Shown here piece by piece: positions 4,249-19,321 of a stretch of DNA of 36,565 nt. Location: the IMG/VR virus record IMGVR_UViG_3300037400_001528; one strand, 5' to 3'. The stretch is from a virus. The position numbers and the translations under genes were made by a program. Below the pieces are notes generated by a model. It had not been told where the DNA came from and searched no databases. It saw nothing but the letters and a program-made list of their open reading frames with translations. Within the stretch, counting starts at the first letter, position 1; every line of letters begins with the position of its first letter.

Positions 4249-4609
4249 GGACGGCGGAATAACATTCACGGTCAAAGGAAAGTTTGACGCACAGGCGGCA
4301 AAGGCACGAATCGGCACAGCGATACGCAAGGCGCAGATGAAACTTGACCAACAGGTAATAACGGACAGCAACTTTTTCTGCCCCTTGAAAACAGGAGCTT
4401 TGCAGAAATCGGCGCAAATAAATACCGTAATCGGAAGCGGGGTTGTGGTTTGGCGCACACCATACGCAAGGGCGCAGTATTACGGCGTGAACTTTGACCG
4501 AAGCAAAGACCCGAACCCGAACGCCTGTGCGAAATGGTTTGAGGCGGCGAAAGCTCGGAAAATGGAGCAATGGAGAAAACTTGTAGATGATACAGTCAAA
4601 AATAGCTGA
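4241..4609 (+). CDS. HK97 gp10-like / minor capsid 2-like tail-head joining protein
   Basis: PLKTGALQKS...WRTPYARAQYYG...AKWFE matches the gp10-family pattern (P..TG.L..S, w..pYA...yy, Wfe). TTG start with a GGGAGG RBS 7 nt upstream. Confidence 0.5.
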   Translation: MNKDGGITFTVKGKFDAQAAKARIGTAIRKAQMKLDQQVITDSNFFCPLKTGALQKSAQINTVIGSGVVVWRTPYARAQYYGVNFDRSKDPNPNACAKWFEAAKARKMEQWRKLVDDTVKNS

Positions 4610-4979
4610 GACAATCAGCGCATGGGTGGAAACCGCCCTGGATTTGCCGTTTACAATCTATTGCGACCTTATACCCGACGAAGATGCCGACGGCGCGTGT
4701 GTAAGGCACGACCCGACACCAGCCGCAGAGAAACGCTTTATCGACGGTACGCGAAAAGTTTCGTGGAATTTCACATTTTATACAAGATGCAGGGATGCGG
4801 GAAACGCGCTTGAGTACGGAAAGCAGATTGTAGACAAGCTGGACGGCGCAACAATCGAAAGCACCGAAAACATAAAAATAGATTGCGAAGCGGTAACGCT
4901 CCCGCAGTTTATTGACACCGACGCAAAAGGGTTTACGACCTATGCGGAATCGGTAAAATGCACATTTTTAGAGGAGTAA
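4587..4979 (+). CDS. Tail completion / minor capsid 3-like protein (assigned by position)
   Basis: 130 aa directly upstream of the major tail gene. Confidence 0.4.
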   Translation: MIQSKIAETISAWVETALDLPFTIYCDLIPDEDADGACVRHDPTPAAEKRFIDGTRKVSWNFTFYTRCRDAGNALEYGKQIVDKLDGATIESTENIKIDCEAVTLPQFIDTDAKGFTTYAESVKCTFLEE

Positions 4980-4986
4980 AAAGACT

Positions 4987-5523
4987 ATGGGAGAACTCAT
5001 CAAAAAAACAAAAGTCGTGCCGTTCATCAACACAGGCACTAGCTCAACCCCGGTATGGACGCAGATAAAAAAGTCTACGAGCTTCACGCTTTCTATGAAT
5101 CCGCAGACAAAGACATTTGATTTTATTTCCTGCGAACACCCGCAAAATGAAATCGACAGTTACCAGCCGAGCCTTGCGCAGGAAATCACCATGTTCAAGG
5201 GAGAACCCGACTACGAAACAATCTTTGATATGCTTTACAACAGGGCAACAGGAGCGGACGCACACCGCGACGCAATGATTGTTTTTTACAAGGAATCTGG
5301 AAGCTACACACCCGATGGGGAAAGTGAAAGCATTACCGTATACAAGGCTTGGAAGATTGACGCACTCGTCACAATCAACCAGATGGACACGGTAAATGAA
5401 AACATCGGCTTTGATTTGGGCTTGAACGAAATCGAAAACGGTGCGGTCGAAATCGGCGAGGGCGGCGCACCTTCATTCATTGCCGGAGAATGGAACGGCA
5501 ACACATTTGCACCTGCCGCATGA
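4987..5523 (+). CDS. Major tail (tube) protein
   Basis: 178 aa with a GAGGAG RBS, followed by a Gp15-like chaperone gene. No sheath gene is present, so the tail is non-contractile. Confidence 0.6.
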   Translation: MGELIKKTKVVPFINTGTSSTPVWTQIKKSTSFTLSMNPQTKTFDFISCEHPQNEIDSYQPSLAQEITMFKGEPDYETIFDMLYNRATGADAHRDAMIVFYKESGSYTPDGESESITVYKAWKIDALVTINQMDTVNENIGFDLGLNEIENGAVEIGEGGAPSFIAGEWNGNTFAPAA

Positions 5524-6083
5524 TAAACTTAAAAAAAACAGGGTTGCCCGAAGCCGTAGAGGTTGACGGCGACCTTTACCCCGTATACACATCGTTCAAG
5601 TTTTGGATTAGGTTTTTTGAACTGCTGGCCAATAAAAACACGCCGCCCGATGATTTTGATTTTATGTATTCCACGGTCGCAAAACCGCAAAGCCGATTAA
5701 ACGGGGTTATTGCGCTCGTGCAATTCGGCAACCCGCCGCAGGAACTGCCGAGAACCCAAGGCGACGACCCGGAAAAAGCCGTTGATTATGCCGTAGACGC
5801 AGATTATATCTATGCGGCATTTATGGAGCAGTATGGAATAGACCTCATTAAAAGTGATATGCACTGGTACGAGTTCCAGGCACTTTTTAGGGGGCTGCAC
5901 GATACAAAGCTGAATGAAATCATCGGCTACAGGCTCTACGAGAACACCAGCGGGAAGCCAGATGCTTACACCCGTCAGATGGAAAAGCTGCGGAGCGCGT
6001 GGGAACTCCCGCAGGACAATGAAGAAGAGGACGAAGCCTTAAAGGAGTTTGAAGCAAAGCTGTACCCCGGCGGGGAAAACTGA
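5520..6083 (+). CDS. Tail assembly chaperone-like protein (Gp15-like)
   Basis: ATGA start overlaps the upstream stop. MINLKKTGLPEAVEVDGDLYPVYTSFKFWIRF... resembles the Gp15 family found after siphophage major tail genes. Confidence 0.45.
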   Translation: MINLKKTGLPEAVEVDGDLYPVYTSFKFWIRFFELLANKNTPPDDFDFMYSTVAKPQSRLNGVIALVQFGNPPQELPRTQGDDPEKAVDYAVDADYIYAAFMEQYGIDLIKSDMHWYEFQALFRGLHDTKLNEIIGYRLYENTSGKPDAYTRQMEKLRSAWELPQDNEEEDEALKEFEAKLYPGGEN

Positions 6084-6088
6084 CTATA
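6079..6088 (+). promoter_or_regulatory. Late motif variant ACTGACTATA (9 of 10), 5 nt upstream of the methyltransferase ATG
   Basis: TGACTATAA is shared with the copies at 9155 and 12894. Confidence 0.35.
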
Positions 6089-6093
6089 AAAGT

Positions 6094-7507
6094 ATGAGGA
6101 TAACCTGCGAAACAAAAGACACCCTGCCGCTATCCGCTTTGACCGAGTTTCAAGGCGGATTAAAGAAGCGCACGGCAGAAGATACAAAGAAAATCGAAAA
6201 GAGCATAAACGATTACGGCTTCGCGACGCCGTTTTTTGTTTGGAAGCATGACGGCATAAACAGCGTGCTAGACGGACACGGACGGTTACAGACATTAAAG
6301 GAAATGCAGCAGCGCGGCGAAGAAATCCCCGCCCTGCCCGTCGTATACATCGACTGCGCCAACGAAGCAGCCGCCAAAAATCTATTATTACGCATTTGCA
6401 GCACATACGGCGAAATGACAGCGCAGACCGTCCACGACTTCATTAAAGAGCTTGAAATCGCGTTCGACGATATACGCCTGCCATGCGGCACAATCGACCT
6501 CACCCCGCTAGATAAAAAGAAAATGGACGACACCAAAAAGACATTGCGCCAGCAATTTCTAGTGCCGCCCTTTTCCGTATTAGATACCCGTCAAGGCTAT
6601 TGGCAAGACCGCAAAAAGCAGTGGAAAAGCATAGGCATAAAATCCGAAGAGGGGCGCGACAATAAGATGTTGAAGCACCTCAAAGAAAATGCCAGCAAAG
6701 TGAACGGCGGCGCAGAAAACACATTGAGCGAAGTATCAATCTTCGACCCCGTATTATGCGAAACAATGTACACATGGTTTTGTATGCCACACGGCAGCGT
6801 ATTAGACCCATTCGCAGGGGGAAGCGTTCGGGGCATTGTAGCCAGCTATAAACACATGAAATACACGGGCTTTGACATTCGCCCCGAACAGGTAGAAGCC
6901 AACGAAAAACAAAAGGTGATCTGCGACGGCAACGAATACGCCCCGCAATGGATTTGTAAAGACAGCGCGAAAATGGGCGAAGTGCTGGGGGGGGGGCGAA
7001 ATGTACGATTTTGTATTTAGCTGCCCACCCTATGCAGATTTAGAAAAATACAGCGACATTGACGGCGACATCTCAAATATGGATTATCCTCAGTTTTTGG
7101 AAACATACCGCGCAATCATCAAGGCGGCCGTTTCACATCTGAAAGATAACCGCTTCGCCGTTTTTGTAGTCGGCGAGGTACGAAATAAAAAGACGGGCGA
7201 ATATTATAATTTTGTACCCGACACAATAAAGGCATTTGAGGACGCGGGCTTAAAATATTACAACGAAATCATATTGCTAAATGTAGCAGGCGGGAAAGCG
7301 TACACAGCAGGGCACGACGCAAAGAAAAGCCGCAAGATTGCAAAAGTACATCAGAATATACTCGCATTTGTAAAAGGCGACGCAGACGAAGCGGCGAAAA
7401 TCCACGAGCAAGTTTTAGTTTTCCTCAAAGGAAACAGCAAAGAAGCTAACGCCGATTTAGGCGACTTCCGCGCCGATAACTGCATATTGCCCGAAATGTT
7501 CGAGTAA
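6094..7507 (+). pseudogene. ParB-like N-terminal domain fused to an N6A/N4C DNA methyltransferase, split by a +1 frameshift in a G10 tract
   Basis: The upstream frame (6094-7020) has the ParB/Srx-like DGHGR motif and the AdoMet motif I DPFAGGS. The downstream frame (7001-7507) starts MYDFVFSCPPY (motif IV, PPY). Deleting one G gives the in-frame junction ...LGGGEMYDFVFSCPPY... Confidence 0.75.
6987..6996 (+). repeat. G10 homopolymer at the methyltransferase frameshift, 4 nt upstream of the ATG at 7001
   Basis: ctgGGGGGGGGGGcgaaATG read directly from the sequence. Confidence 0.9.
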
Positions 7508-7534: not shown

Positions 7535-7894
7535 ATGGGCAGAAAGAAAAAGATTTATAAAAAAGCAGATATTCTCGAAGCCATAAAAGGTAGCGGCGGC
7601 ATAGTAACAACCGTCGCCCTCGCCTTAAATTGCGATTGGCACACCGCAAAGGCAAACATAGAGAAATACGAAGAAACCCGCGAAGCGTTCGACGGCGAAT
7701 TAGAAACGGGGCTGGATTTGGTAGAGGGCAAAGCATATCAGCAGGCAAAGAACGGCGACGGCGCGATGATACGCTTTATTTTAGCAACTAAAGGACGCAA
7801 ACGCGGCTACGGCGAAACAGCCCCGCAGGAATTGGACGACGCAGAGGATAACGAGCTGACAATCGAAATAGTGGACGGCGACGATGAGGATTAA
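7535..7894 (+). CDS. terS: Terminase small subunit
   Basis: 119 aa with an N-terminal HTH-like segment (ILEAIKGSGGIVTTVALALNCDWHTAKANIEKY) and an acidic tail. Overlaps the terL start. Confidence 0.65.
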   Translation: MGRKKKIYKKADILEAIKGSGGIVTTVALALNCDWHTAKANIEKYEETREAFDGELETGLDLVEGKAYQQAKNGDGAMIRFILATKGRKRGYGETAPQELDDAEDNELTIEIVDGDDED

Positions 7895-9155
7895 ATCAAA
7901 CACGATATTTGCAAAGAAATATAATAAACTCTTCCGCTGGATAATGAAGCACGAATACACCGAGTACACGCTGACAGGCGGCCGCGGTTCGTGCAAATCC
8001 TCGTTTATATCGCTATGTATAATTATCTTGATTGTGATGTTTCCGCAATTCAACGCGCTAATTATCCGCAAGAACGCAAACACCCTGCGCACCAGCGTAT
8101 ACGAGCAAATCATTTGGGCGATTGAACGGCTCGGACTACGCAGCCGCTTTAAAATCCCGAAATCAGAAACAAGCGCGCTGCCGATTGTATACCGCCGCAA
8201 GAACGGTACAAAGCAATACATAATCTTTCGGGGCTGCGACAATCCCGAGAAAATCAAATCTATCAAGATTGCACAGGGCTATTTTGGTTTGATTTGGTTT
8301 GAAGAAAAAACCGAGTTCACACCCGCAGAGATACAGAATGTTAAAGTATCAGCCATGCGCGGCGGCAGTAAGTTCTATGTATTTGAATCATACAACCCGC
8401 CAAGCGCAAAACGCCATTGGTGCAACACCGACGCACGCACACCGAAAAAAGACCGCGTCGTTTTTCACACCACATATTTAGACATACCGCGCGAATGGTT
8501 GGGCGAAGCGATACTTAACGAAATCGAACACACGAAGAACACGAACGAGCGGGCATACAGAAATATATTTTTAGGGGAAGCGACAGGAACAGGGCTTAAC
8601 ATATTTGAGAATGTGGAACTGCGGGAAATCACGGACGAAGAAATAGCGGCGTTTGATTTTTTCTACAGCGGCATAGACTGGGGATATTACCCCGACCCCT
8701 TCGCCTTTTCCACATCATCATACAACGCGGCGACACAGACGCTTTTTATTTTTGATGAAATGTATCTGAACAAGCGCGGCAATTTTGAAGCGTTCCAAGA
8801 CTTAACAAAGCACATGGAAGCGCACGGCATGAGCATTGCAACGGACAGAATCACAGCCGACAGCGCAGAGCCTAAGAGCGTGGCTGACTTTAGGAGCTGG
8901 GGCGGAAATGTGCGCGGCGCAATTAAGGGAATAGGAAGCCGTGACGCGTCGTTTAAATGGCTACAGGGATTAAAACGGATTGTAATAGACCCCGCGCGAT
9001 GTCCGAGAATCGCCGACGAGTTCACGCTATACGAGCACGAAATAGACAAGCGTACAGGCGAGACTCTTAGCGGCTACCCCGACGGACAGCCCGACCACGG
9101 AATAGACACGGTGCGATACGCGCTGGAAACGGTTTGGAGACATGCGGGCGAGTAA
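7884..9155 (+). CDS. terL: Terminase large subunit (PBSX/Terminase_3-like)
   Basis: Walker A motif TGGRGSCKSS, an FEE Walker B-like segment, and a C-terminal nuclease region ending DHGIDTVRYAL. Confidence 0.85.
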   Translation: MRIKSNTIFAKKYNKLFRWIMKHEYTEYTLTGGRGSCKSSFISLCIIILIVMFPQFNALIIRKNANTLRTSVYEQIIWAIERLGLRSRFKIPKSETSALPIVYRRKNGTKQYIIFRGCDNPEKIKSIKIAQGYFGLIWFEEKTEFTPAEIQNVKVSAMRGGSKFYVFESYNPPSAKRHWCNTDARTPKKDRVVFHTTYLDIPREWLGEAILNEIEHTKNTNERAYRNIFLGEATGTGLNIFENVELREITDEEIAAFDFFYSGIDWGYYPDPFAFSTSSYNAATQTLFIFDEMYLNKRGNFEAFQDLTKHMEAHGMSIATDRITADSAEPKSVADFRSWGGNVRGAIKGIGSRDASFKWLQGLKRIVIDPARCPRIADEFTLYEHEIDKRTGETLSGYPDGQPDHGIDTVRYALETVWRHAGE

Positions 9156-9180: not shown

Positions 9181-10569
9181 ATGTTTGAGAAAATAAGGGG
9201 CTTTTTTATGAACATTCTAGGATTGTTTCACAATTATTCACTAAAGGAAATTACGGGCGTTGACACAAACCTTTCAAGCGAAATGTATAACGCTATTGAA
9301 TTGTGGTCGAACATGGCAAGCGGCAACGCGCCGTGGAACGGCAAAGCCCCACCATGCGGAGTATTGGAGCAGATAGCAGGGCGGCTTGATATGCTCGTTT
9401 CCCGCGAAATCGGGCTTGAAGTAAAAAACGAAGCGATTAAAAGCGCAATGGAACACATTAACAAGAATGTAGATAAGATTGTGGACTATATCGCGCTTAT
9501 TGGCGGGTGCATTGTACGCCCGATTTTCAGCAACAGCAAATTACAGTATGAAACATTACCGCTGGGAAACTATCTGCCTATTTCATACGATTTTGACGGA
9601 ACGCTTACAGGCGCATTGATTTTGAAGCAGATACAGAACGGCGCGAAAAAATGGCTATTGACCGAAAAGCACACCTACGAAAACAAAACGCACACGGTAG
9701 AATGTACGCTATACAGGAATGAGGGCGGCTCATTGCGTAAGACGGATTTAGGCGACTGCCAGCAGACCGCAGACATAACGCCGCTTTATGAGTGGGAAAA
9801 TGTAGCGTTTCCGATGATTATAGAATTCAGAAATCACGCAGTAAACAAGATTGACGGCTCAAACGTTCCCGTCCCGGTAATTGCGGGCGCGGAAGATTTG
9901 ATTAAGGATGCGGACGAACAGTTTGAGCGCATGAACTGGGAGCAGAAAGGCGGCGAAATGCGTGTATTTGCTGACCGTGATATGTTCGCAAAACGGCAGA
10001 AAAGGAACGGCGAAGCGACAGGCGTAAAAATGACACCCGAACTAAACCGTCTTTTAGTACAGGTCGAGGGCGACGGAAGCACCGAGGGAAAGAAGATCAC
10101 CGAACACGCACCGACACTACGGACAGCCGCACAAAATGAAATGTTCCAGCAGATACTGCGCCGCATTGAATTGACTTGCAACTTAGGCAAGGGAACAATC
10201 AGCGACATGGAGAGCGTACAGCAGACCGCGACACAGTACAGCGGCGGACGAAGCGAACTTTACGCAATCGTTGACAAAATCGAGGACGAAATAGAAACCA
10301 AATACCACCACACGGCGGCAGTATTGGCGCACATGGCGGCAGCTTACGGAATCGGCGCGAACAACGCAAACATAAAAGTCACATGGAACAACGACGCGAC
10401 CCGCAAAGACGAAACGGCGGCTAAACAAATGGCATTGCAGGAAATCAGCGCAGGCGTAAAAAACAAATGGGAATACCGAAAAGACTTCTACGGCGAGGAC
10501 GAAGCACAGGCAAAGGCAAACGCGCCAGTAGAACCAACATCCGCAGACCCTTATAATTTTGGAGCGTAG
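9181..10569 (+). CDS. Portal protein (SPP1 gp6-like)
   Basis: 462 aa directly after terL and before the MuF-like gene. Confidence 0.75.
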   Translation: MFEKIRGFFMNILGLFHNYSLKEITGVDTNLSSEMYNAIELWSNMASGNAPWNGKAPPCGVLEQIAGRLDMLVSREIGLEVKNEAIKSAMEHINKNVDKIVDYIALIGGCIVRPIFSNSKLQYETLPLGNYLPISYDFDGTLTGALILKQIQNGAKKWLLTEKHTYENKTHTVECTLYRNEGGSLRKTDLGDCQQTADITPLYEWENVAFPMIIEFRNHAVNKIDGSNVPVPVIAGAEDLIKDADEQFERMNWEQKGGEMRVFADRDMFAKRQKRNGEATGVKMTPELNRLLVQVEGDGSTEGKKITEHAPTLRTAAQNEMFQQILRRIELTCNLGKGTISDMESVQQTATQYSGGRSELYAIVDKIEDEIETKYHHTAAVLAHMAAAYGIGANNANIKVTWNNDATRKDETAAKQMALQEISAGVKNKWEYRKDFYGEDEAQAKANAPVEPTSADPYNFGA

Positions 10570-10572
10570 AAA

Positions 10573-10713
10573 ATGGCAAGAATGAACAAACAGAAAAAGG
10601 AAATCACAAAGAATGACCGCGCCGTATTGGACGGCTTGCGCCATGCTATCAATCATTACCCATTGCGCCGCCGCATTGTATTGGCATGGCGAGTTTTGCG
10701 GGGCAAGTTCTAA
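10573..10713 (+). CDS. Small basic hypothetical protein (46 aa)
   Basis: Hand-translated: MARMNKQKKEITKNDRAVLDGLRHAINHYPLRRRIVLAWRVLRGKF. It exactly fills the gap between portal and MuF, and its TAAATG junction abuts the next start. Confidence 0.4.
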   Translation: MARMNKQKKEITKNDRAVLDGLRHAINHYPLRRRIVLAWRVLRGKF

Positions 10714-12552
10714 ATGCTATCCCCGCGATATTTGGATGGCTTATCCTATGCACTAATTGAAATCTACTCACAGCTAGAAGCCGACATATTACAGGATATG
10801 GCGCGACGATTGGCACGAATCGGCAAAGTAACGGACGCTACAAAATGGCAAGCGCAGATGTTAGCCGAAGCGGGCGGGCTTAAAAAGAACATCGGGCGGA
10901 TTTTGGCAAAATATGACAAGGCAATAGTGAAGCAGATTAAAGACACATTCACGGACGCGCTGGAAACAAACACGAGGAACGACAACCGTATATTTAAGGC
11001 GGCGACAGGTCGCACCGTTTCCGCGCCGAACGCCCAGCAAATGCTTTCAACAATTCAAAAATGTCACAGCGATTTATCACGGCTCACGCTTACCACGGCG
11101 GCAACGACAGAAACACAGTTCGTGCAACAGGCTAACCGCGTATATATGCAAACACAGTCGGGCGCGTTCGATTATGATACCGCAATGAAAAACGCGGCGG
11201 ACGAACTAAGCAAGCGCGGAATAACTACGGTTCACTACGAGAACGGGCGACCCGTTACCCGCTCCATAGAATCAGCCGTCCGCATGAACATACTAACCAG
11301 CATAAACCAAACGGCGGCAAATCAGACTTTGAGCAACGCGGAAGAATTGGGCGTTGAGAAATTCGAGGTAACGGCGCACATCGGAGCGCGACCCGAACAT
11401 GAAGCGTGGCAGGGCAAAATCTACACGAAAGAAGAATTGTACAGCAAGTGCGGGCTTGGCGATGTTACGGGATTATGCGGCATAAACTGCCGCCATTCGT
11501 TCTACCCCTATTTTGAGGGAATGGAAGAGCATTACACGCAGGACGATTTAGACGATATGGCAAGCGAGAAAGTGAACTTCAACGGGCTGGAAATGACACG
11601 CTACGAGGGCGAGCAGAAACTGCGCGGAATCGAGCGGAACATAAGGCACTACAAGCGCGAAGCACTGACGCAGGAAGCGGCGGGCGTGGACAATACGAAA
11701 GCACGGCGGAAGCTCGGCGAATGGCAAGCGGCGGCACGTGATTTTACCAAGCAAACAGGCATAGCCCGCGACAGCGCGAGGGAGTATGTAGGAACGAGCG
11801 GAAAGCAGCCGACAGGATTAAAGCCACAAAAGAATATTGTAATTGAACCGAACAAAATAAAAACTGAATACAACAACATTCTTAAAAAGTATAACGGCGA
11901 CACAAACGCGGTTATAAAAAAGGCTACGAAATCGGAATTAAACACCGTAAAGGCATACAACCAAATTATAAATGACCAAAAGAGCGAGGATTATATAAAA
12001 TTATTCAACGCCCAAACGGTAGACACAAACGCATTAACTGAAACGCTACAAAAAACAACAAATGTAGAACAGCGAGACGCTTTCAGAGAATGGACGAGTT
12101 CAGCATATCGCCCTATAAATGCGTATTACAGGAACGGAACTCCGACAGACGCAGGATATAAAAAGACAGGGGAAATAATACATGATTACCTCAATAAGTG
12201 CGAATATCCCGAAATGTATGTAAGGCGCGGGGCTGATTATGAGTATGTGACAAAGATATTTGGCTCGGACGAATGGAAAAAGAATCCGCAATTATTGCTT
12301 CATTCGGAACTGACGGACAAGGGCTTTCTTGCCACAACGCCATCAAAAACGGGTGGCTTCAGCGGCGAAGTAATGTTATATTATAAAGTTCCCGATAAAT
12401 CAAAAGCTGCATATATCGCAAGTTTGTCATACTACGGACATGAGCAAGAAACTTTGTTTATTGACAATACAAAAGCAATAATCAAAGAAATCAGAGTGGA
12501 AACACTGGGCGGACATACCCGCTATACTTTATTTTTGGATATGGAGAAATAA
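10714..12552 (+). CDS. MuF / SPP1 gp7-like head morphogenesis protein fused to a C-terminal ADP-ribosyltransferase toxin domain
   Basis: MuF core: GARPEHEAWQGKIY...CGINCRHSFYPY. C-terminal R-S-E ART signature: SSAYRPINAYYRNG, MYVRRG (Arg), GFLATTPS (STS-like), GHEQETLF (ExE). Confidence 0.7.
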   Translation: MLSPRYLDGLSYALIEIYSQLEADILQDMARRLARIGKVTDATKWQAQMLAEAGGLKKNIGRILAKYDKAIVKQIKDTFTDALETNTRNDNRIFKAATGRTVSAPNAQQMLSTIQKCHSDLSRLTLTTAATTETQFVQQANRVYMQTQSGAFDYDTAMKNAADELSKRGITTVHYENGRPVTRSIESAVRMNILTSINQTAANQTLSNAEELGVEKFEVTAHIGARPEHEAWQGKIYTKEELYSKCGLGDVTGLCGINCRHSFYPYFEGMEEHYTQDDLDDMASEKVNFNGLEMTRYEGEQKLRGIERNIRHYKREALTQEAAGVDNTKARRKLGEWQAAARDFTKQTGIARDSAREYVGTSGKQPTGLKPQKNIVIEPNKIKTEYNNILKKYNGDTNAVIKKATKSELNTVKAYNQIINDQKSEDYIKLFNAQTVDTNALTETLQKTTNVEQRDAFREWTSSAYRPINAYYRNGTPTDAGYKKTGEIIHDYLNKCEYPEMYVRRGADYEYVTKIFGSDEWKKNPQLLLHSELTDKGFLATTPSKTGGFSGEVMLYYKVPDKSKAAYIASLSYYGHEQETLFIDNTKAIIKEIRVETLGGHTRYTLFLDMEK

Positions 12553-12554
12553 GA

Positions 12555-12746
12555 GTGAGCGATAAGTTTGTTTATACATCGGACGACGCGGCGGGGTGTA
12601 TTCTTAAACGCCCTAATTATGAGCAGTGCAAAGATTGCGTTTACAACTACGACGAAGAGCCGTTCCATTGTTTGATTTTCGAGGATTTTAAGCCAGCCGC
12701 CATATTATACGACGGGAAGAAATGCAAAGACAAAAGAACCGACTAA
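12555..12746 (+). CDS. Small protein immediately downstream of MuF-ART (candidate immunity or antidote protein)
   Basis: 63 aa with a GTG start and GGAG 8 nt upstream, only 2 nt after the toxin stop. Acidic and Cys-containing. The function is inferred from position only. Confidence 0.4.
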   Translation: MSDKFVYTSDDAAGCILKRPNYEQCKDCVYNYDEEPFHCLIFEDFKPAAILYDGKKCKDKRTD

Positions 12747-12893
12747 AAACACCCTACAGCCGAACGACAGCCAAACTTAAAACTACTTTCTAGCATAATT
12801 CGGAAAATTACCCACTGACACGAAAAAAACAGGCTTAAAACTTCATTTTTCAGAAACCAGCCCTGCACCATTGCGGGGCTTTCATTTTGCCCA

Positions 12894-12903
12894 AATGACT
12901 ATA
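12894..12903 (+). promoter_or_regulatory. Late motif AATGACTATA, copy upstream of the endolysin
   Basis: Perfect 10-mer, with 17 nt containing an AGAGGG RBS before the ATG at 12921. A hairpin plus T-rich tract (about 12860-12890) precedes it. Confidence 0.6.
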
Positions 12904-12920
12904 AGGGCAGAGGGCAAGAA

Positions 12921-13514
12921 ATGATAATTACTCAAAAACTATTAACACCAAACAGCTACAGCCGACCGCAAAGGCGCATGAAGGAACTCCTCGGCATTGT
13001 AATTCATTGGACGGCGAACCCATACGCAAACGCGGAACAGGTCAGGCTTTATTTTGAAGCAAAGCAAACAGGAATGGGCGGCTACGGCTCGGCTCATTAC
13101 ATCATCGGGCAGGACGGCACAACAATTCAGTGCATACCCACAAATGAAGTTGCATGGCATTGCGGGAGCAGCCAGAAAGACCCGGCAAGCGGACAGGTCT
13201 ACACCGACTACGCAAGGAAAAAGTTCGGACACTATGCCGTGAACTGGCAGACCACCAGCCCGAACTATTGTACAATCGGGATTGAGCTTTGTCCGACAGA
13301 CAACAGCGGCAATTTTTCAGAAAAAACGATAAACGCCGCCATTGATTTATGCACCTACCTATGCAAGCGGCACAACCTCACGGCGGACGACATCACGACA
13401 CATCACGACATCGTAGGATGGAAAGACTGCCCGCGCCTATGGACGAAACGCCCGGAACTTTTAGGAGCTTTCCGCGCAAGCGTAAAAGACGCAATCGCGA
13501 GGTGGAAAGAATAA
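12921..13514 (+). CDS. N-acetylmuramoyl-L-alanine amidase (Amidase_2/PGRP-type endolysin)
   Basis: IVIHWTANPYANAEQVRLYF...SAHYIIGQDGT...VAWHCGS...TIGIELC...ITTHHDIVGWKDCP are typical amidase_2 zinc-ligand and catalytic segments. Confidence 0.85.
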   Translation: MIITQKLLTPNSYSRPQRRMKELLGIVIHWTANPYANAEQVRLYFEAKQTGMGGYGSAHYIIGQDGTTIQCIPTNEVAWHCGSSQKDPASGQVYTDYARKKFGHYAVNWQTTSPNYCTIGIELCPTDNSGNFSEKTINAAIDLCTYLCKRHNLTADDITTHHDIVGWKDCPRLWTKRPELLGAFRASVKDAIARWKE

Positions 13515-14005
13515 TGTGGGAAACAATCGGGCAAGTATTGACCAGCGGGAACGCTTGGCAGGTGATTATTTTTCTGGCCGTAATCGTGGTTTTTGCAATC
13601 ATTCTTGCAAGAAGCGGCACGGTCGCAATCAAGACAAAGCACCTGCGAATTGGACAGGCTGAAAAAGAGCGGGAAATCATACGCCGACAGGTAGAAGCCG
13701 CACACGATTTTATTATGAGCATTGAGGGCAAAATTCCCGAAAAGCCCGAATACGGCGGATATTTCACAAAGTACATACTGGAACGCGTTTACGACAAGGT
13801 GATTGAATGGGTAATGTTCAACCACATCACGGATGCGCCCATGTATGTACAGGATAAACAGGCTACAATATGCAATTTGGTCTACACATTCAGCATAAGC
13901 GAGGAATACAAGACCCCAGAGTTTAAAACCCGGATGTGCAACTGGACGGCGGAACTAATAGCGCGGCTCGTAAAGACCCGCCAATTATACACAAAGGAGA
14001 ATTAA
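13514..14005 (+). CDS. Membrane-anchored protein in the lysis cassette (one N-terminal TM helix)
   Basis: The ATG overlaps the amidase stop (TAATG). MWETIGQVLTSGNAWQVIIFLAVIVVFAIILARSG. The upstream 55 codons of the track ORF (13349-) overlap the amidase gene and are discarded. Confidence 0.6.
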   Translation: MWETIGQVLTSGNAWQVIIFLAVIVVFAIILARSGTVAIKTKHLRIGQAEKEREIIRRQVEAAHDFIMSIEGKIPEKPEYGGYFTKYILERVYDKVIEWVMFNHITDAPMYVQDKQATICNLVYTFSISEEYKTPEFKTRMCNWTAELIARLVKTRQLYTKEN

Positions 14006-14009
14006 GCGT

Positions 14010-14255
14010 ATGAGCGAGGAAAAGACGTCGGAAACGCAGGAAGAAAAAAAAGGAATCACGGCTAAAACAATCAGCAAGATTTTCAAGTTCACGGCGGCGG
14101 GGGGCGTTATCGTCTGCGCCGTCTTGAAATGGGCGGGAATCCTCCCGAACGCAAGCGCGGGCGAAATCTGCATGATTTGGGCGGCGGTCTATGGAATCGG
14201 CGCGGGAACAATCGACTTGAATATCATGTTTGACAAGTTCACGGGGGCAAAATGA
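14010..14255 (+). CDS. Holin-like protein (two TM helices)
   Basis: 81 aa with a charged N-terminus followed by two hydrophobic helices (FKFTAAGGVIVCAVLKWAGIL and ICMIWAAVYGIGAGTI). Confidence 0.55.
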   Translation: MSEEKTSETQEEKKGITAKTISKIFKFTAAGGVIVCAVLKWAGILPNASAGEICMIWAAVYGIGAGTIDLNIMFDKFTGAK

Positions 14256-14521
14256 CGGTAACGGGCTGGATAATTGCGGGGCTTGCGCTTGCTCTGGTCG
14301 CTACATTGGGAATCGGAGCGGCCGCATTTTACATAATGCGCAAACGACATGAGCGGGAAGAAAACAAAATAAGACAAGAGGGGGCGGCAAATGCACAGCA
14401 TACGGCGGACATCATCACCAAAGCGGAGCAAATCAAGATTGACGCAGACACTGGCAATCATTCTGATGATTTGCACACTATGGCTGACCAGCTGCACAAC
14501 TACGCGCACGGCGGAAAGTAA
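14252..14521 (+). CDS. i-spanin-like protein (N-terminal TM helix plus a charged helical domain)
   Basis: MTVTGWIIAGLALALVATLGIGAAAFYIM is followed by a charged helical region. A lipoprotein ORF overlaps its 3' end in another frame. Confidence 0.4.
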   Translation: MTVTGWIIAGLALALVATLGIGAAAFYIMRKRHEREENKIRQEGAANAQHTADIITKAEQIKIDADTGNHSDDLHTMADQLHNYAHGGK

Positions 14522-14705
14522 GCCCGCCCCGCAATACTACCCGCCCGACCCTTACGACAAGAACGGCGTTTTAGTATGGGCGGAAATAAAGGACGGGGAA
14601 ACGTTCACGGCGACCGAGGACGGTTTGTTTCTGCCGTTTTGGTGGTGGAAAAAAGTTTATGATTACATCGTGAACACACAGGCGGCGCAGAAAATCCGCG
14701 AATGA
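14391..14705 (+). CDS. o-spanin-like lipoprotein overlapping the i-spanin-like gene
   Basis: Signal peptide with lipobox (LAIILMICTLWLTS-C) and a Pro-rich mature part (KPAPQYYPPDPYD). GAGGGGG RBS upstream. Overlaps 14252-14521 by 131 nt out of frame, as in the Rz/Rz1 arrangement. Confidence 0.4.
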   Translation: MHSIRRTSSPKRSKSRLTQTLAIILMICTLWLTSCTTTRTAESKPAPQYYPPDPYDKNGVLVWAEIKDGETFTATEDGLFLPFWWWKKVYDYIVNTQAAQKIRE

Positions 14706-14710
14706 CTATA
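14701..14710 (+). promoter_or_regulatory. Late motif AATGACTATA, copy upstream of the small membrane protein gene
   Basis: Perfect 10-mer followed by TAGGCGGAGG (RBS), then the ATG at 14728. Confidence 0.6.
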
Positions 14711-14727
14711 TAGGCGGAGGTTAAGAA

Positions 14728-14901
14728 ATGAGCAAAAAAACATTCGCACTTATTACGGGAATCACGGGCGGAACGGGAACAATCGCCGCCGCCGTTGTTT
14801 CGTTCTTTCAGCCAGCCCACACCGCCGCAATCGTGGCGGCCATCGGGATTGCTGTTACAGCGGCAAACGAAATATGCGGGCTGTTCGTAAAAGAGAAATA
14901 A
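14728..14901 (+). CDS. Small hydrophobic membrane protein (57 aa, below the ORF-track cutoff)
   Basis: Hand-translated: MSKKTFALITGITGGTGTIAAAVVSFFQPAHTAAIVAAIGIAVTAANEICGLFVKEK. GGAGG RBS upstream and a terminator downstream. Confidence 0.55.
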   Translation: MSKKTFALITGITGGTGTIAAAVVSFFQPAHTAAIVAAIGIAVTAANEICGLFVKEK

Positions 14902-14925
14902 TCGCAGGGCTGGCAATGCGATTTT

Positions 14926-14960
14926 AAGGCGGCTATGATTAGGTGTTAGCCGCCTTTTTT
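14926..14960 (+). terminator. Rho-independent terminator ending the lysis cassette
   Basis: aaggcggcta (14926-14935) pairs perfectly with tagccgcctt (14947-14956), followed by a T run. Confidence 0.75.
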
Positions 14961-14976
14961 AAGGATTATAATAAGC

Positions 14977-15141
14977 ATGAGAATAATATCTGACGAATTA
15001 CACGCAAGGATTATTAAAGAACTTGCAAAAAATGAGTCCGTGGCAGTTTTTCAGCAACTTCTTTTAGCACCAAAGACAGACGAAAAGGACGAAGAAGCCT
15101 CACGGGAAAGCGAAGAGCCGCGGCAAGGAGTTGAAAAGTGA
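14977..15141 (+). CDS. Small acidic hypothetical protein (54 aa)
   Basis: Hand-translated: MRIISDELHARIIKELAKNESVAVFQQLLLAPKTDEKDEEASRESEEPRQGVEK. A TATAAT box lies just upstream, and the stop overlaps the next GTG start (GTGA). Confidence 0.4.
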   Translation: MRIISDELHARIIKELAKNESVAVFQQLLLAPKTDEKDEEASRESEEPRQGVEK

Positions 15142-15491
15142 ACTATGGACGGGTAACACCCCGCGCAAGGCAGGGAACAACAGGAATCAGCGTTGAAGAA
15201 GATTTACACGCAAACGAGGGTGCGTGGATAAGCCCGCCCGACAGAGTGGCAGCCGTTACCGTTGCCGTGCATATTCCCGCTAATGAATCCGCAACTTTCG
15301 TAATTGAAACATCATGCAACAGAGCGGACACAATCGGCGAAAACGGCACGGGCGGCTATTGGGACAACCCGTTTGGCGACGGCGTTATTTTGTCGGAAAA
15401 CACGGTCGTTATGATTGCAAACGCCGTGACTGGAATCCGCGTCCGTTGTATCACCGCAAGCGATACCATTAACGTATGCTTTGTGGGGTGA
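15138..15491 (+). CDS. Hypothetical beta-rich structural protein (fibre region)
   Basis: 117 aa with a GTG start, in an operon with the fibre-like genes. Confidence 0.5.
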   Translation: MNYGRVTPRARQGTTGISVEEDLHANEGAWISPPDRVAAVTVAVHIPANESATFVIETSCNRADTIGENGTGGYWDNPFGDGVILSENTVVMIANAVTGIRVRCITASDTINVCFVG

Positions 15492-15494
15492 CGT

Positions 15495-15938
15495 ATGTAT
15501 TACGGATTGCTAATGCCCATCCCGTACCCGGGCGGCGTGTATTTGCGGAGCATACAGCAAACGCAAACATCAGCGGAATCGGGCGGAACAAACGAAATCA
15601 CGGCCACGCTCACCAACGCCCAAAAGAGCAAATTCTACATCAAGAACGGAGCGAAGGGAGACACAGGAGCGGCGGCGGGCTTCGGCACTGTCACGGCGGA
15701 GGCTGAAATTCTTAACATGGGGGAAGACCCCACCGTCAACGTTTCCGTTTCCGGCGACGACACACAAAAAAACATGGCCTTTACCTTCGGCTTGCCCGCC
15801 GGAGCGGTTGCCGAAGCGTCCGGCGTATTTGGTTTTTACATCGACAACACTACGGGCGACCTTATGCTTTCCTACAGTGGAAACGAAGCACCGAATTTCA
15901 CGGTAAACAGCGACGGCGAATTGATATACACATACTAG
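15495..15938 (+). CDS. Tail-fibre-like protein with a short collagen-like segment
   Basis: 147 aa containing GAKGDTGAAAGFG. Directly upstream of the DGR target gene. Confidence 0.5.
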   Translation: MYYGLLMPIPYPGGVYLRSIQQTQTSAESGGTNEITATLTNAQKSKFYIKNGAKGDTGAAAGFGTVTAEAEILNMGEDPTVNVSVSGDDTQKNMAFTFGLPAGAVAEASGVFGFYIDNTTGDLMLSYSGNEAPNFTVNSDGELIYTY

Positions 15939-15948
15939 GAGAAAAAAA

Positions 15949-16929
15949 ATGGGAACGGTAAACTTTGGACAAGTCGCGGCTCTAATTCAGAGCGTGAGCG
16001 CAGAAGCATTGGCAGAAGGAGCAACCCCAACCGTAAGAAATGCAGGAACAAAAGCAAACGCGCAGTTAGTTTTTGGTATTCCCGTAGCTACGGCATTGAG
16101 CCACAATATTCCGCGTTTAGTGCCTAAAGATATTACATCATACATCACCGACGGCACATTTTGGAAGCGTTTAGCTGGCACAAACGGCTTCGCGCTTTTT
16201 GAAGATATTTATGTCGGCGATTATTTCCAAATGTCCCGCGCAATTTCCGCATACGAGCGCACAGGGGAGTATCAAACTACAGGCTCGCAGTATGTAACCA
16301 TTGCGGGGCTTGATACCATGATGAACAACGGCGACCAAGACAGCGGAATTACATATCATCATGCCGTAATGGTTGCAGGGCAAGGGTTCGGCGGCACACA
16401 ACACTTCGGACGGAGCCGCATGAACGCGACAAACGACACAACGGGCGGCTATAAAGCAAGCGAAATGAATACGCTTGTTTTGGGCGATGTAGTAAGCGCG
16501 GGAAGCACAGCAGCCGACGCGACAATTAACCAGCAGCTCTACGCAGAGTTTGGAGTTCATTTGAAAACCACCCGCGAGCTGGTAACAAACGCAATCAACG
16601 CCACAGGCTACAACAGATTTGGAAGCGCGACAGGTTGTGCAAGTAACTGGGAATGGATAAGCGCACAGGCTATTTTAATGAGCGAGGTCGAAGCCTACGG
16701 CTCTATAGCTTGGAGCAGTTCGGGCTATGACACAGGAAACGCAAACCGACAGTTGCCGCTTTTTGCATTTAGCAAACAGGCACAAAATAACCGTTCGGCT
16801 TATTGGTGGCTAAAAGATGTTGCGTCCGCCGCTGATTTCTGCGGTGCCGACGCCGATGGCGGTAGCAGCTGCCACTACGCGGGCCATGCGAGATATTACG
16901 TTCGTCCCCGCTTCATCTTAGGGGCATAG
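15949..16929 (+). CDS. DGR target protein 1 (fibre/receptor-binding candidate with a C-terminal CLec-type variable region)
   Basis: 326 aa. The C-terminus YWWLKDVASAADFCGADADGGSSCHYAGHARYYVRPRF is encoded by VR1, which matches the TR except at adenines. Confidence 0.85.
   Translation: MGTVNFGQVAALIQSVSAEALAEGATPTVRNAGTKANAQLVFGIPVATALSHNIPRLVPKDITSYITDGTFWKRLAGTNGFALFEDIYVGDYFQMSRAISAYERTGEYQTTGSQYVTIAGLDTMMNNGDQDSGITYHHAVMVAGQGFGGTQHFGRSRMNATNDTTGGYKASEMNTLVLGDVVSAGSTAADATINQQLYAEFGVHLKTTRELVTNAINATGYNRFGSATGCASNWEWISAQAILMSEVEAYGSIAWSSSGYDTGNANRQLPLFAFSKQAQNNRSAYWWLKDVASAADFCGADADGGSSCHYAGHARYYVRPRFILGA
16818..16913 (+). repeat. DGR variable repeat VR1
   Basis: Ungapped 96-nt alignment to TR 17561-17656. 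There are 20 mismatches, 19 of them at TR adenines (13 A->G, 4 A->C, 2 A->T) and one C->A. Confidence 0.9.
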
Positions 16930-16933
16930 CCCC
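16921..16933 (+). promoter_or_regulatory. GC hairpin 8 nt downstream of VR1 (candidate DGR target-recognition hairpin)
   Basis: ggggc-ata-gcccc. A second hairpin, ccgccc-cgtgt-gggcgg, lies at 16949-16965. Confidence 0.45.
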
Positions 16934-16976
16934 GCAATCCGCTAATCTCCGCCCCGTGTGGGCGGGATAGCGGAAA

Positions 16977-16986
16977 AATGACTATA
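16977..16986 (+). promoter_or_regulatory. Late motif AATGACTATA, copy upstream of the Avd-TR-RT unit
   Basis: Perfect 10-mer, 18 nt before the ATG at 17005. Confidence 0.6.
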
Positions 16987-17004
16987 TGATAAAAGGTTTA
17001 TAAA

Positions 17005-17553
17005 ATGAGTGTTCTGAAAAACTTACAGAATCTAAGCGATTTAGAGTTTTACAAATGCGCGGAAAAATTGCAGGACGACATCACGGATTTTGCGCTGCGT
17101 AACTTCGGATTAAAACGAAGCCCGCGAAGCGTAAATCAGATAATCAAAGATATTGAGGAAACAGACCAAGAAACCATAAACGGGATTTTTGCGAAATACG
17201 GCAAGAAACCGAATCAAGGTTTTAACAGCGAATTTCCCGAATGGTTTATCGAAAACCGTAAGCTGCATTTAATTGCATTTACAGACACACTAATTGAAAA
17301 CATCATAGCCGCCAACATCATACACCCCGTAACAATCGCGGAATGTGACCAGCGGCGATGTTTACAAGACGCGGCAATAGGTGTTTGCGGTAATCTCTAC
17401 AGAGAATTTCAATATCTAAAACGCCATTTGCCTATAAACCTAAATTGGATTGCGGGTACTATTGCCCTAATCCAATACGAGGAAAAATTATTGAAAGGTT
17501 GGCGACAATCAGACAATAAAATCCGTAGTAAAATACAGAATAAACAAGGGTAA
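17005..17553 (+). CDS. avd: DGR accessory variability determinant (Avd-like helical bundle protein)
   Basis: 182 aa, helical, between VR1 and the TR. LEFYKCAEKLQDDITDF at the N-terminus and a basic tail LLKGWRQSDNKIRSKIQNKQG, as in Avd/four-helix-bundle proteins. Longer than typical Avd. Confidence 0.6.
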   Translation: MSVLKNLQNLSDLEFYKCAEKLQDDITDFALRNFGLKRSPRSVNQIIKDIEETDQETINGIFAKYGKKPNQGFNSEFPEWFIENRKLHLIAFTDTLIENIIAANIIHPVTIAECDQRRCLQDAAIGVCGNLYREFQYLKRHLPINLNWIAGTIALIQYEEKLLKGWRQSDNKIRSKIQNKQG

Positions 17554-17560
17554 GATTTGT

Positions 17561-17656
17561 TATTGCGTCCGCCGCTAATTTCTGCAATGCCAACAACAAT
17601 GGCAATAGCAACTACAACAACGCGAGCAATGCGAACAATTACGTTCGTCCCCGATT
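17561..17656 (+). repeat. DGR template repeat (TR)
   Basis: Contains 30 adenines. In the target frame it carries 12 AAY codons (AAT TTC TGC AAT GCC AAC AAC AAT GGC AAT AGC AAC TAC AAC AAC GCG AGC AAT GCG AAC AAT TAC). Non-coding position between avd and RT. Confidence 0.9.
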
Positions 17657-17809
17657 TGAATGGCGCACAGCGTATTTTTAGACAAGTGCGTTTAACGAAG
17701 GAAATCTTATCCTGCGCCGTAACAAGCCGAACAAAACGGGCGACGCGGTTTGATAAGTCAATACCGCTACACGCGCCCGTTATTTTTTTTATATTTAGGA
17801 TTTTTGAAA
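17657..17809 (+). ncRNA. TR-RT spacer (candidate structured Sp part of the DGR RNA)
   Basis: ggcgca (17662-17667) can pair with tgcgcc (17713-17718). An imperfect hairpin at 17736-17780 (acgggcg/cgcccgt and gcggt/accgc) is followed by a T8 run (17783-17790). Confidence 0.45.
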
Positions 17810-18889
17810 ATGGGTACATTGTACGAAAAGCTGCTAGATCTGAACAACCTACACGAAGCCTACATAAAAAGCAAAAGCGGCGTGGAGTGGAAAGAATCAG
17901 TACAAAAATACGGAATCTACGAGCTGGCACACATTCAAGAATTGAGCGAAGCCCTTAAAAATCATACCTACAGGCAAAAGCCTTTTTATGAGTTCGACAT
18001 CAACGAACGCGGAAAGCAGCGGCATATTAAAAGCCTGCACATCAGCGACCGCGTTTTACAGCGCGCATTATGCGACCAAATATTAACGCCCGAATTGCAG
18101 AAATATTTAATTTATGACAACGGCGCGAGCGTAAAAGATAAAGGGATAGAGTTTTCCCGCCGACGGCTAAAAACACATTTAACACGCTATTATAAAAAGT
18201 ACGGGCGCGACGGCTATATATTGCTGATTGATTTTTCAAAATATTTTGACAATATCCGCCACGACAAACTATTAGAAATGATTGCCGAAAAAATCGACGA
18301 CGCGGAAGTTATAGAACTATTGCGGCATTTAATCACAACGTTCGACACGGCAGAAAACGCGGGGCGTTCGGTTGGAATCGGCAGCCAAATATCACAGATT
18401 GCAGGGATTTTCTACCCGACCCGCATTGATAATTATTGCAAGATAGTCCGCAGCGTAAAATATTACGGCCGCTATATGGACGATACATATATCATTCATA
18501 ACGACAAACAATATTTGCGCGAGCTATTGCACGACATACAGCAGATTTGCGACGAATTAGGAATCATCATAACCAAAAAGAAAACGCAGATTGTAAAACT
18601 TTCAAACGGTTTCACATTTCTAAAAATGCGCTATTTAATCACGGACACAGGAAAGATTATTGTAATTCCATGCAAAGCCAGCATAACACGCGAACGGCGC
18701 AAGCTGCTGAAATTAAAAAGATTTGTATTAGCGGGGCGTATAACACCCGCAGAAATCCGCGAGCAATACAAAAGCTGGCGCGGAAATCTAATCAAATACA
18801 ACGCATATAAAAGCGTTCGCTCCACGGACGCATTATATAAATCACTATTCGGGAGTAATTATGGTCAAAAAGAAAAAGGAATTAACTGA
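17810..18889 (+). CDS. DGR reverse transcriptase
   Basis: Motifs ISDRVLQRAL, LLIDFSKYFDNIRH, VGIGSQISQIAGIFY (DGR-type I/LGxxxSQ), YGRYMDDTYII (YxDD) and FTFLKMRY. I prefer the ATG at 17810 (MGTLYEKL) over the track start at 17750. Confidence 0.9.
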   Translation: MGTLYEKLLDLNNLHEAYIKSKSGVEWKESVQKYGIYELAHIQELSEALKNHTYRQKPFYEFDINERGKQRHIKSLHISDRVLQRALCDQILTPELQKYLIYDNGASVKDKGIEFSRRRLKTHLTRYYKKYGRDGYILLIDFSKYFDNIRHDKLLEMIAEKIDDAEVIELLRHLITTFDTAENAGRSVGIGSQISQIAGIFYPTRIDNYCKIVRSVKYYGRYMDDTYIIHNDKQYLRELLHDIQQICDELGIIITKKKTQIVKLSNGFTFLKMRYLITDTGKIIVIPCKASITRERRKLLKLKRFVLAGRITPAEIREQYKSWRGNLIKYNAYKSVRSTDALYKSLFGSNYGQKEKGIN

Positions 18890-19261: not shown

Positions 19262-19268
19262 ACCACAT

Positions 19269-19296
19269 GCCCCGTAATTATGCGGGGCTTTTTTTT
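19269..19296 (+). terminator. Rho-independent terminator ending the fibre/DGR operon
   Basis: gccccgta-atta-tgcggggc (8-bp stem with one G-U pair) followed by T8. Confidence 0.8.
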
Positions 19297-19306
19297 ATTT
19301 TCCTTA

Positions 19307-19316: not shown

Positions 19317-19321
19317 TAAGC

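Follow-up and report, generated by a model that had tools for sequence, protein, structure and literature searches.

A predicted MuF-ADP-ribosyltransferase toxin and its probable small cysteine-rich immunity protein form a swappable cassette in a Treponema phage

The virus record IMGVR_UViG_3300037400_001528 of IMG/VR, a stretch of 36,565 nucleotides that we call the window, contains an open reading frame (ORF) for a phage head protein of the MuF superfamily fused to an ADP-ribosyltransferase (ART) domain (positions 10714 to 12552, plus strand, 612 amino acids [aa]). A small cysteine-rich ORF begins 2 nt past its stop codon (positions 12555 to 12746, plus strand, GTG start, 63 aa) and is a candidate for the gene of an immunity protein. 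Both ORFs had been proposed from the letters of the window alone, and both are present as claimed. Based on a comparison of the window with related phages, prophages, and metagenome contigs, we think it likely that the two genes encode a polymorphic toxin of the MuF type, carried by a temperate Treponema phage, and its cognate immunity protein, and that they move together as one swappable cassette.

The fusion protein consists of a conserved head part (residues 1 to 372, positions 10714 to 11829, plus strand) and a swappable toxin tip (residues 373 to 612, positions 11830 to 12552, plus strand). The head part is made up of a Phage_min_cap2 (MuF2) domain and the first portion of a linker that is predicted to be disordered (residues 353 to 377, where the predicted local distance difference test score [pLDDT] of an AlphaFold2 model is <50), and the tip is a helical lead-in followed by a predicted ART of the R-S-E type (about residues 441 to 612). 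The GC content of the head part is 51.9%, and that of the tip is 38.2%. In a Pfam scan, residues 2 to 345 match Phage_min_cap2 (PF06152, E = 2.9e-80), which places the N terminus in the MuF superfamily, and the PHROGs profiles identify the whole protein as a minor head protein (phrog_581, E = 3e-93). The Phage_Mu_F profile (PF04233) has no match in the fusion protein at E ≤ 0.1 in the same scan, and the NCBIfam model of SPP1 gp7 (TIGR01641) scores under its cut-off. Because PF06152 matches, PF04233 is absent, and TIGR01641 is below threshold, the head domain is, by its profile matches, of the "MuF2" type of Jamet 2017 (PMC5576092) and not Phage_Mu_F proper. The original prediction, an N-terminal MuF/SPP1 gp7-type head protein of roughly 400 aa that a Phage_Mu_F profile should recognize, was therefore correct as to a head protein and a conserved head stretch, but the type is a different one and the stretch ends at residue 372.

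The C-terminal domain had been identified correctly. ADPrib_exo_Tox (PF03496) matches residues 441 to 605, as had been anticipated, with E = 1.3e-12 and 47.9 bits versus a cut-off of 23.4. A phmmer search of PDB sequences with the last 192 residues matches Lmo0066 of Listeria (8za7_B, E = 4.6e-9), Vip2 (E = 3.3e-5), Plx2A, and C3 exoenzymes. The AlphaFold2 model of the fusion protein, which was built from 24 homologues, is of moderate confidence overall (pLDDT 62, with values of 60 to 86 across residues 440 to 612), and its C-terminal domain has an ART fold. In a Foldseek comparison with the PDB, there are 135 matches at E ≤ 0.001, and the top-ranked ones listed are all ADP-ribosyltransferases. 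The first is 8za7_B, the Listeria ART toxin (E = 5e-10, TM score of 0.73 on the target), and the other top matches are Vip2, C3bot, C3larvin, Plx2A, C2-I, Certhrax, CDTa, and iota Ia (E values for 8za7_B, Vip2, C3bot, C2-I, and iota Ia are 5e-10 to 1e-7). Based on the Pfam match, the search of PDB sequences, and the fold search with the model, which agree with one another, we regard the assignment of residues 441 to 605 to the ARTs of the C2/C3/Vip2 type as confirmed.

The motifs on which the ART had originally been recognized are all in the protein: AYRPINAYYRNG at residues 464 to 475, VRRG at 503 to 506, FLATTPS at 538 to 544, and EQETLF at 577 to 582. In the phmmer alignments, the second Arg of V-R-R-G (R505, nucleotides 12226 to 12228, plus strand) pairs with the catalytic Arg of Vip2, F-L-A-T-T pairs with Y-M-S-T-S, and E-Q-E (residues 577 to 579, nucleotides 12442 to 12450, plus strand), which is the ExE motif, pairs with E-K-E of Vip2. 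R505, A540, T541, T542, E577, and E579 are invariant in 24 aligned homologues that are 59 to 94% identical overall, and all of them but A540 have also been followed over a range of 54 to 98% identity without a change. The Arg and the ExE motif of the proposed R-S-E signature thus stand, with the Arg and both Glu residues aligned with catalytic positions, while the S part is not canonical: the STS region (A540-T541-T542, nucleotides 12331 to 12339, plus strand) reads A-T-T, with the first Ser replaced by Ala and Thr541 kept in all 24 homologues. In related ARTs, a hydrogen bond links the first Ser of this region to the catalytic Glu (PMC3000352). From an ExE motif, arginine is the expected acceptor (PMC3000352), and the motif here points to arginine residues of proteins as the acceptors of this enzyme. 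The ratio of nonsynonymous to synonymous substitution rates (dN/dS) of the ART domain is 0.03 to 0.07.

When the MuF domain alone was used as the query, 877 proteins were recovered. The proteins that are closest to the window's in the MuF domain (99% identical there) are 647 aa long and have no ART. The C termini on other related MuF domains include Gln_amidase (PF15644), CdiA_C (PF18451), and a second ART type with no BLASTP similarity to the ART of the window, and still others end at 365 to 406 aa. MuF domains that are 82 to 99% identical to the window's thus carry at least five other C termini or none, which bears out the assignment of the fusion to the MuF polymorphic-toxin class. The edges of the variable region can be placed by comparison with one related locus, L010, in which the MuF domain is 98.6% identical. 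The DNA of L010 is 95.5% identical to the window over positions 10221 to 11829, unrelated over 11830 to 12743, and 98.5% identical over 12744 to 16570. On the left, the variable region therefore begins at residue 373, which is in the predicted disordered linker, and on the right it reaches to the small ORF's stop codon at 12744. Similarity to the window is also lost at 11812 to 11829 in four further phages (L011 to L014), and MuF matches in 27 genomes of the Treponema family mostly stop at residues 370 to 378. The junction between head part and tip is thus constant, at residues 371 to 378. The GC content of the cassette is 39.4%, versus 51.9% and 50.7% for the flanks that encode the MuF domain and an amidase. 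At the level of sequence comparison, these breakpoints show that the toxin tip and the small ORF are exchanged as one cassette (11830 to 12746).

Several of the tips on related MuF domains, of ~170 to 290 aa, have no Pfam match (L010:1610-2434; L024:2620-3444; L027:691-1518, minus strand; L023:772-1509, minus strand; L025:451-1182, minus strand; and L033:2665-3168). One of them sits on the MuF backbone that is 98.6% identical to the window's, and most have a conserved small partner ORF. These tips are candidate new toxin domains.

The small ORF shows the properties of a gene that is expressed together with the toxin. The stop codon of the toxin (TAA) is at 12550 to 12552 and the GTG start codon is at 12555. 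A GGAG Shine-Dalgarno sequence, read from the sequence, lies 8 nt ahead of the GTG at 12543 to 12546 (plus strand), where it overlaps the final toxin codons, and this position implies that translation of the small ORF is coupled to that of the toxin. In relatives, the gap between toxin and small ORF is −4 to +6 nt. Homologues of the small ORF, at 40 to 94% identity, are found directly 3' of this ART type in every locus recovered. The relatives carry ATG at the position of the window's GTG, which supports that start codon. The dN/dS of the small ORF is 0.04 to 0.17, and by this comparative evidence, the ORF at 12555 to 12746 is a real gene under purifying selection.

D11, C25, C28, C39, K46, and C57 are invariant in 20 members of the small-ORF family, and P47 is nearly so. 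The arrangement C25-x2-C28...C39...C57 is typical of a small metal-binding fold, and the protein probably binds zinc. It has no match in Pfam, PHROGs, NCBIfam, PADLOC, or the PDB, and a profile search found only 21 members of the cysteine-rich family among 1.84 billion cluster representatives. Most of the 21 are 62 to 127 aa long, and a few are tandemly duplicated. Two distant members (P0167 and P0175) matched no viral contigs in single-sequence searches. The family is also rare in the Treponema family, where it occurs in 3 of 401 genomes. The 99-aa versions of the protein (L001:7650-7949 and L005:7848-8147) have a C-terminal tail of ~35 aa that is rich in E and K. This tail weakly resembles the C-terminal half of the unrelated 58-aa partner of the 647-aa toxin type (L010:2437-2613; BLASTP E = 0.006 in a tiny database), and the likeness may be a shared module or a chance match.

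The family of the small protein goes with the toxin type and not with the phage. When the C termini of 17 loci and the ORFs behind them were each clustered by BLASTP, the two clusterings gave the same six groups; of 136 pairs, 27 are related and concordant, and none is discordant. The groups are this ART type (7 loci), an unassigned type of 647 to 658 aa whose partner belongs to a 58-aa family (3 loci), the Gln_amidase type (2 loci), the CdiA_C type (1 locus), the second ART type (2 loci), and a type of 617 to 621 aa whose partner is DUF7675 (2 loci). The ART cassette of the window is found on MuF backbones that are 64 to 67% and 96% identical to the window's, while backbones that are 85 to 99% identical hold other cassettes. 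Since the distribution of cassettes disagrees with the similarity of the backbones, the association of toxin and small ORF does not simply reflect common descent. The three short MuF forms that we examined (L013, L031, and L034) are followed by no cassette ORF and instead by backbone genes, either the tape-measure gene or a homologue of window positions 14977 to 15141.

Copies of the small ORF are also found apart from the toxin. In the 2 to 4 kb inspected of each of three metagenome contigs (L017 to L019), the 99-aa version of the ORF is intact, and there is neither a MuF gene nor a full ART. The array on L017 and L018 adjoins an Omp85-type gene on a 76.8-kb contig and contains unassigned small ORFs, a Nif11-like peptide gene, a DUF7675 gene, and two copies of the cysteine-rich ORF, both of which are in L018. 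The 75 nt (25 codons) ahead of one orphan copy match the 3' end of the L005 ART gene by homology. In the other, homology starts 16 nt inside the ORF, which has its own ATG start. The DUF7675 gene of the array is 54 to 57% identical to the ORF right after the 617- and 621-aa MuF toxins of two Treponema-family prophages. On L009 (897-1481), a contig of a Treponema metagenome-assembled genome (MAG), there is a 77-aa protein that is homologous (87% identity) to the 58-aa partner of the 647-aa type. After it comes a decayed fragment consisting of the last 22 ART codons and residues 13 to 51 of the cysteine-rich ORF. This fragment looks like the remnant of a displaced cassette.

Contact-dependent inhibition (CDI), Rhs, and type VI secretion systems (T6SS) are known to have orphan modules of C-terminal toxin and immunity genes, as well as polyimmunity loci. 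The arrays resemble those modules in three ways: an intact immunity gene comes after a remnant of the toxin 3' end, immunity genes of several specificities are neighbors, and a full toxin is lacking. They differ in that the genes here match partners of phage MuF toxins. This resemblance argues for a protective rather than a helper role of the small protein. The original prediction had placed the small ORF where an immunity gene is usually found. That assignment now draws support from the exchange of the ORF together with the tip, the pairing across 17 loci, the absence of such an ORF after short MuF forms, and the orphan copies. Taken together, the comparisons strongly support the conclusion that the 63-aa protein is the immunity protein that matches the ART. 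Orphan immunity genes linked to MuF toxins were also sought in the literature, with no relevant result.

Two further observations concern the genes of the arrays. DUF7675 (Pfam PF24723) is found after the 617- to 621-aa MuF toxins (L023:512-772 and L025:218-451, both minus strand) and in the toxin-less arrays (L018:2977-3261 and L019:330-602), which suggests that it is an immunity family. The Nif11-type leader peptide gene (L018:2446-2736; PF07862, E = 3.5e-5) lies amid the immunity-like genes of the array.

One of the nearest known systems is that of Bxa, encoded by a prophage of Bacteroides stercoris (Alexei et al. 2024, PMC11699363). Like the fusion described here, Bxa has a MuF domain and a C-terminal ART of the arginine type, is accompanied by small adjacent ORFs, and belongs to a prophage-encoded polymorphic family that includes glutamine deamidase tips. 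It is neutralized by Bsi, a small, nonenzymatic binding inhibitor, and by the ADP-ribosylhydrolase BAH, a second immunity protein, as tested in Escherichia coli (PMC11699363). By description only, the two differ in length (869 aa with a middle domain for Bxa, 612 aa for the window's protein) and in their immunity genes: the window has a single 63-aa four-cysteine partner and no hydrolase among the ORFs scanned. The host of the Bxa prophage is Bacteroides. Alexei et al. went no further than to speculate that additional immunity genes may be present in MuF clusters (PMC11699363). The MuF polymorphic toxins described by Zhang 2012 (PMC3482391) and Jamet 2017 (PMC5576092) share with the window's protein the position after the portal gene, PF06152 (MuF2), and a variable toxin C terminus; in Jamet 2017, as here, an ORF of <150 aa follows long but not short forms, and the phages are temperate. 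ARTs make up 14% of the 191 MuF toxins in that survey (PMC5576092). It found the toxins mainly in Firmicutes prophages, whereas the present set comprises spirochete phages, cassette edges mapped to the base, and toxin-less partner arrays. Fusions of Alt/VIP2 ARTs to MuF have been described by Iyer et al. (PMC9503650).

The EFV toxin of Enterococcus faecalis V583 (Fieldhouse 2010, PMC3000352) is likewise a C2/C3-like MuF-ART with an ExE motif for which a phage route has been proposed. EFV is toxic in yeast, and its toxicity depends on the two Glu residues of ExE (PMC3000352). It differs in having a PF04233-type MuF domain, a length of 487 aa, and a canonical S-T-S, versus PF06152 and A-T-T in the window. 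Lmo0066 of Listeria monocytogenes (PDB 8za7, deposited as an "ART-ARH type toxin effector-immunity protein pair") is the closest protein of solved structure in both fold and sequence (25% identity). It is a stand-alone toxin of 180 aa with no phage head fusion, it has S-T-T in place of A-T-T, and its immunity partner is an ADP-ribosylhydrolase, so that immunity there means reversal and not blocking. A literature search found no publication for the 8za7 structure. T4 Alt is an R-S-E ART that travels in the phage head and enters the cell together with the injected DNA (cited in PMC5576092 and PMC3000352), a delivery that for the window's protein we infer from its family. Unlike that protein, Alt comes from a virulent phage in which its gene is fixed; it has its own head-targeting signal and no MuF fusion, immunity gene, or polymorphic tip.

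According to the reading that we favor, the late operon (terL, the portal gene, a 46-aa ORF, the MuF-ART gene, and the small ORF) would be transcribed, and the small ORF would be translated by coupling through the GGAG sequence. The 63-aa protein, probably with zinc bound by its four cysteines, would bind the ART domain and block it in the producing cell. The MuF N-terminal domain would bring the fusion into the procapsid at the portal, and the fusion would exit with the DNA at the next infection. In the cytoplasm of the recipient, the ART would then spend NAD+ to ADP-ribosylate its targets, at arginines if the E-x-E motif is a guide, and cells that express the matching small protein (lysogens and carriers of orphan copies) would be protected. 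Enzymatic activity, toxicity, neutralization by binding, packaging, and injection are all steps that we infer from the established biology of the family. SPP1 gp7 is present in 1 to 2 copies per capsid and is bound to the portal (cited in PMC5576092), and Bsi blocks Bxa and Tis1 blocks Apk2 by binding (PMC11699363).

Four other explanations must be weighed, and the comparative data favor a toxin with its immunity protein over each of them. The fusion could be an injected enzyme of host takeover or counter-defense like T4 Alt, which would modify the host RNA polymerase or defense proteins to the benefit of the infecting phage, and the small protein would then silence the ART only during assembly. 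An ART fused to a head protein beside the portal suits such a role, Alt/VIP2-MuF fusions having been read as injected effectors (Iyer et al., PMC9503650), and EFV has also been compared with Alt (PMC3000352). From what is generally known of the R-S-E clade, the ExE motif is in keeping with an enzyme that, like Alt, modifies arginines. However, near-identical phages hold a glutamine deamidase, CdiA_C-like, or other interbacterial toxin tip or none, so the tip is dispensable and interchangeable, and toxin-less arrays with the partners of two tips fit protection from harm better than they fit regulation of a helper enzyme. We consider this explanation unlikely. We regard as decidedly improbable the idea that the protein is freed when the phage lyses its host and then acts outside bacteria, on the cells of the animal, with immunity serving only to prevent self-damage beforehand. 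Its precedent is Bxa, which modifies epithelial proteins, aids gut colonization, and needs immunity proteins (PMC11699363), and the relatives of the window's protein come from metagenomes. Against this, the sequence has no sign of eukaryotic uptake, the family is polymorphic with typical antibacterial tips, and bacteria seem to encounter the toxin, given the orphan partner genes in other bacterial contigs.

The remaining two explanations concern one half of the pair each. A strict covariation with the tip would be expected of a dedicated chaperone, too, and small zinc-binding proteins are, as a matter of general knowledge, often adaptors; moreover, the model of the small protein (pLDDT 44) is uninformative on this point. 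The 63-aa protein could thus be no immunity protein but a helper of one particular tip, for which it would act as a zinc-binding chaperone, as an adaptor for packaging, or as a cofactor needed for activation. A helper would be useless without its toxin, however, and intact copies with their own starts persist beside a 25-codon remnant or with no toxin at all, in company with the partner of another tip. The small ORFs behind MuF toxins that have been tested, Bsi and Tis1, are inhibitors (PMC11699363), and a helper role seems to us very improbable. It is more improbable still that the ART is catalytically dead through the Ser-to-Ala change and persists only as a structural or binding module. The Ser that A540 replaces in all homologues does support the catalytic Glu in related enzymes (PMC3000352), but Arg505, Thr541, Thr542, Glu577, and Glu579 are invariant, the dN/dS of 0.03 to 0.07 is low, and a dedicated partner gene in every locus is hard to explain for a harmless domain.

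Some observations nevertheless count against a toxin-immunity pair that is delivered by the capsid. Packaging and injection have been shown for no MuF toxin (PMC5576092, PMC11699363). The family-wide change of Ser to Ala in the STS region may mean that ART activity is reduced or tuned differently. The window ORFs that were scanned include no ADP-ribosylhydrolase and no macro domain, although the immunity protein of Lmo0066 is a hydrolase, and the AlphaFold2 model of the small protein, at pLDDT 44, gives no information on how it might bind. As for the orphan genes, two copies differ from a phage copy by only 1 to 2 nt and may be recent arrivals rather than genes kept by selection; because they are nearly identical to that copy, dN/dS cannot show that they are maintained in place. 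The Omp85-type neighbor of the orphan arrays has no match in 401 Treponema-family genomes.

The assignment of the host comes from the relatives. The sole match of the small ORF among species genomes is in a Treponema MAG, and the MuF domain is found, at up to 94% identity, in 27 of 401 genomes of that MAG's family. Several of these MuF matches lie in chromosomal contigs of >1.7 Mb; as they are inside contigs of megabase scale, the loci are prophages. The window has a transposase-type integration gene (27748 to 29067; phrog_8463, E = 3.5e-25) as well as early genes of the Erf, single-stranded DNA-binding protein, and DnaC types. Judged by its relatives' prophages and its integration gene, the phage of the window is probably temperate, and its host is Treponema. 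A megablast search of window positions 10000 to 14000 against 50,697 GenBank phage records gave no match, so the phage has no cultured close relative among them.

Upstream of the fusion gene are terL (Terminase_3 by Pfam, 7884 to 9155), the predicted portal gene (9181 to 10569, plus strand; it has no Pfam match and is identified by position and conservation), and a basic 46-aa ORF (10573 to 10713) between the portal and fusion genes. The order of terL, portal gene, small ORF, and MuF gene is kept in all related loci. The ORF between portal and MuF is kept in position, at 46 to 57 aa, in phages with every cassette type, and since it is present beside every type, it belongs to the backbone and not to the cassette. 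Directly after the cassette are genes for an amidase and membrane proteins. Between the cassette and the endolysin gene, a consensus scan found a terminator-like hairpin (12859 to 12880, plus strand; 9 pairs, 6 of them G-C, with a T-rich tail), for which only the position is suggestive, as hairpin-like sites in the region are not above the number expected by chance.

Other features of the window lie farther from the cassette. Positions 15949 to 18889 hold a diversity-generating retroelement (DGR), with a 326-aa target gene that ends in a variable repeat (16820 to 16913) 80% identical to the template repeat (17563 to 17656) and with a reverse transcriptase gene at 17750 to 18889 (phrog_1423, RVT_1). 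By eye, the differences between the repeats fall at template adenines. A DNA methyltransferase/ParB-like gene (6049 to 7507) is split into two overlapping ORFs (6049 to 7020 and 7001 to 7507) that match consecutive parts of phrog_498. The order of the late genes is unusual (1807 to 7020 and 19280 to 22057) in that the genes for the scaffold, the major head protein, and the adaptor precede those for the methylase and the terminase. Lysis genes and the DGR (12921 to 19280) separate the cassette from the tape-measure gene in the window, while the tape-measure gene comes straight after the MuF gene or cassette in L007, L012, and L013. L002, L004, and L014 show the canonical order, in which the cassette is followed by the lysis and scaffold genes.

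MuF toxins that combine an ART tip with a small immunity protein have been described before (Jamet 2017; Bxa/Bsi 2024). This locus is a further, well-supported example with no new mechanism, and it leaves the current picture of the MuF toxin class unchanged. Particular to it are the spirochete host of the phage, the A-T-T variant of the ART, an undescribed family of four-cysteine partners, the link of DUF7675 to another MuF tip, and toxin-less arrays that mix the partners of different tips. MuF toxins are widespread in prophages, and for the class as a whole, both the role and the delivery route remain unproven. To our knowledge, bench studies of MuF toxins have been limited to Apk2 and Bxa. 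The locus offers a toxin-plus-partner cassette delimited to the base, near-isogenic phages that differ only in the cassette, a new small cysteine-rich candidate ART inhibitor, and the toxin-less partner arrays. It is a compact system in which to ask whether capsid-borne toxins act on recipients and how 63 residues block an ART. We raise, as a tentative possibility that we would not yet bet on, that the four-cysteine protein founds a new family of small metal-binding inhibitors of C2/C3-type ARTs and that the toxin-less arrays are polyimmunity islands in phage-free bacteria. If the arrays are such islands, MuF toxins would really reach and harm recipient cells, which bears on what MuF toxins are for.

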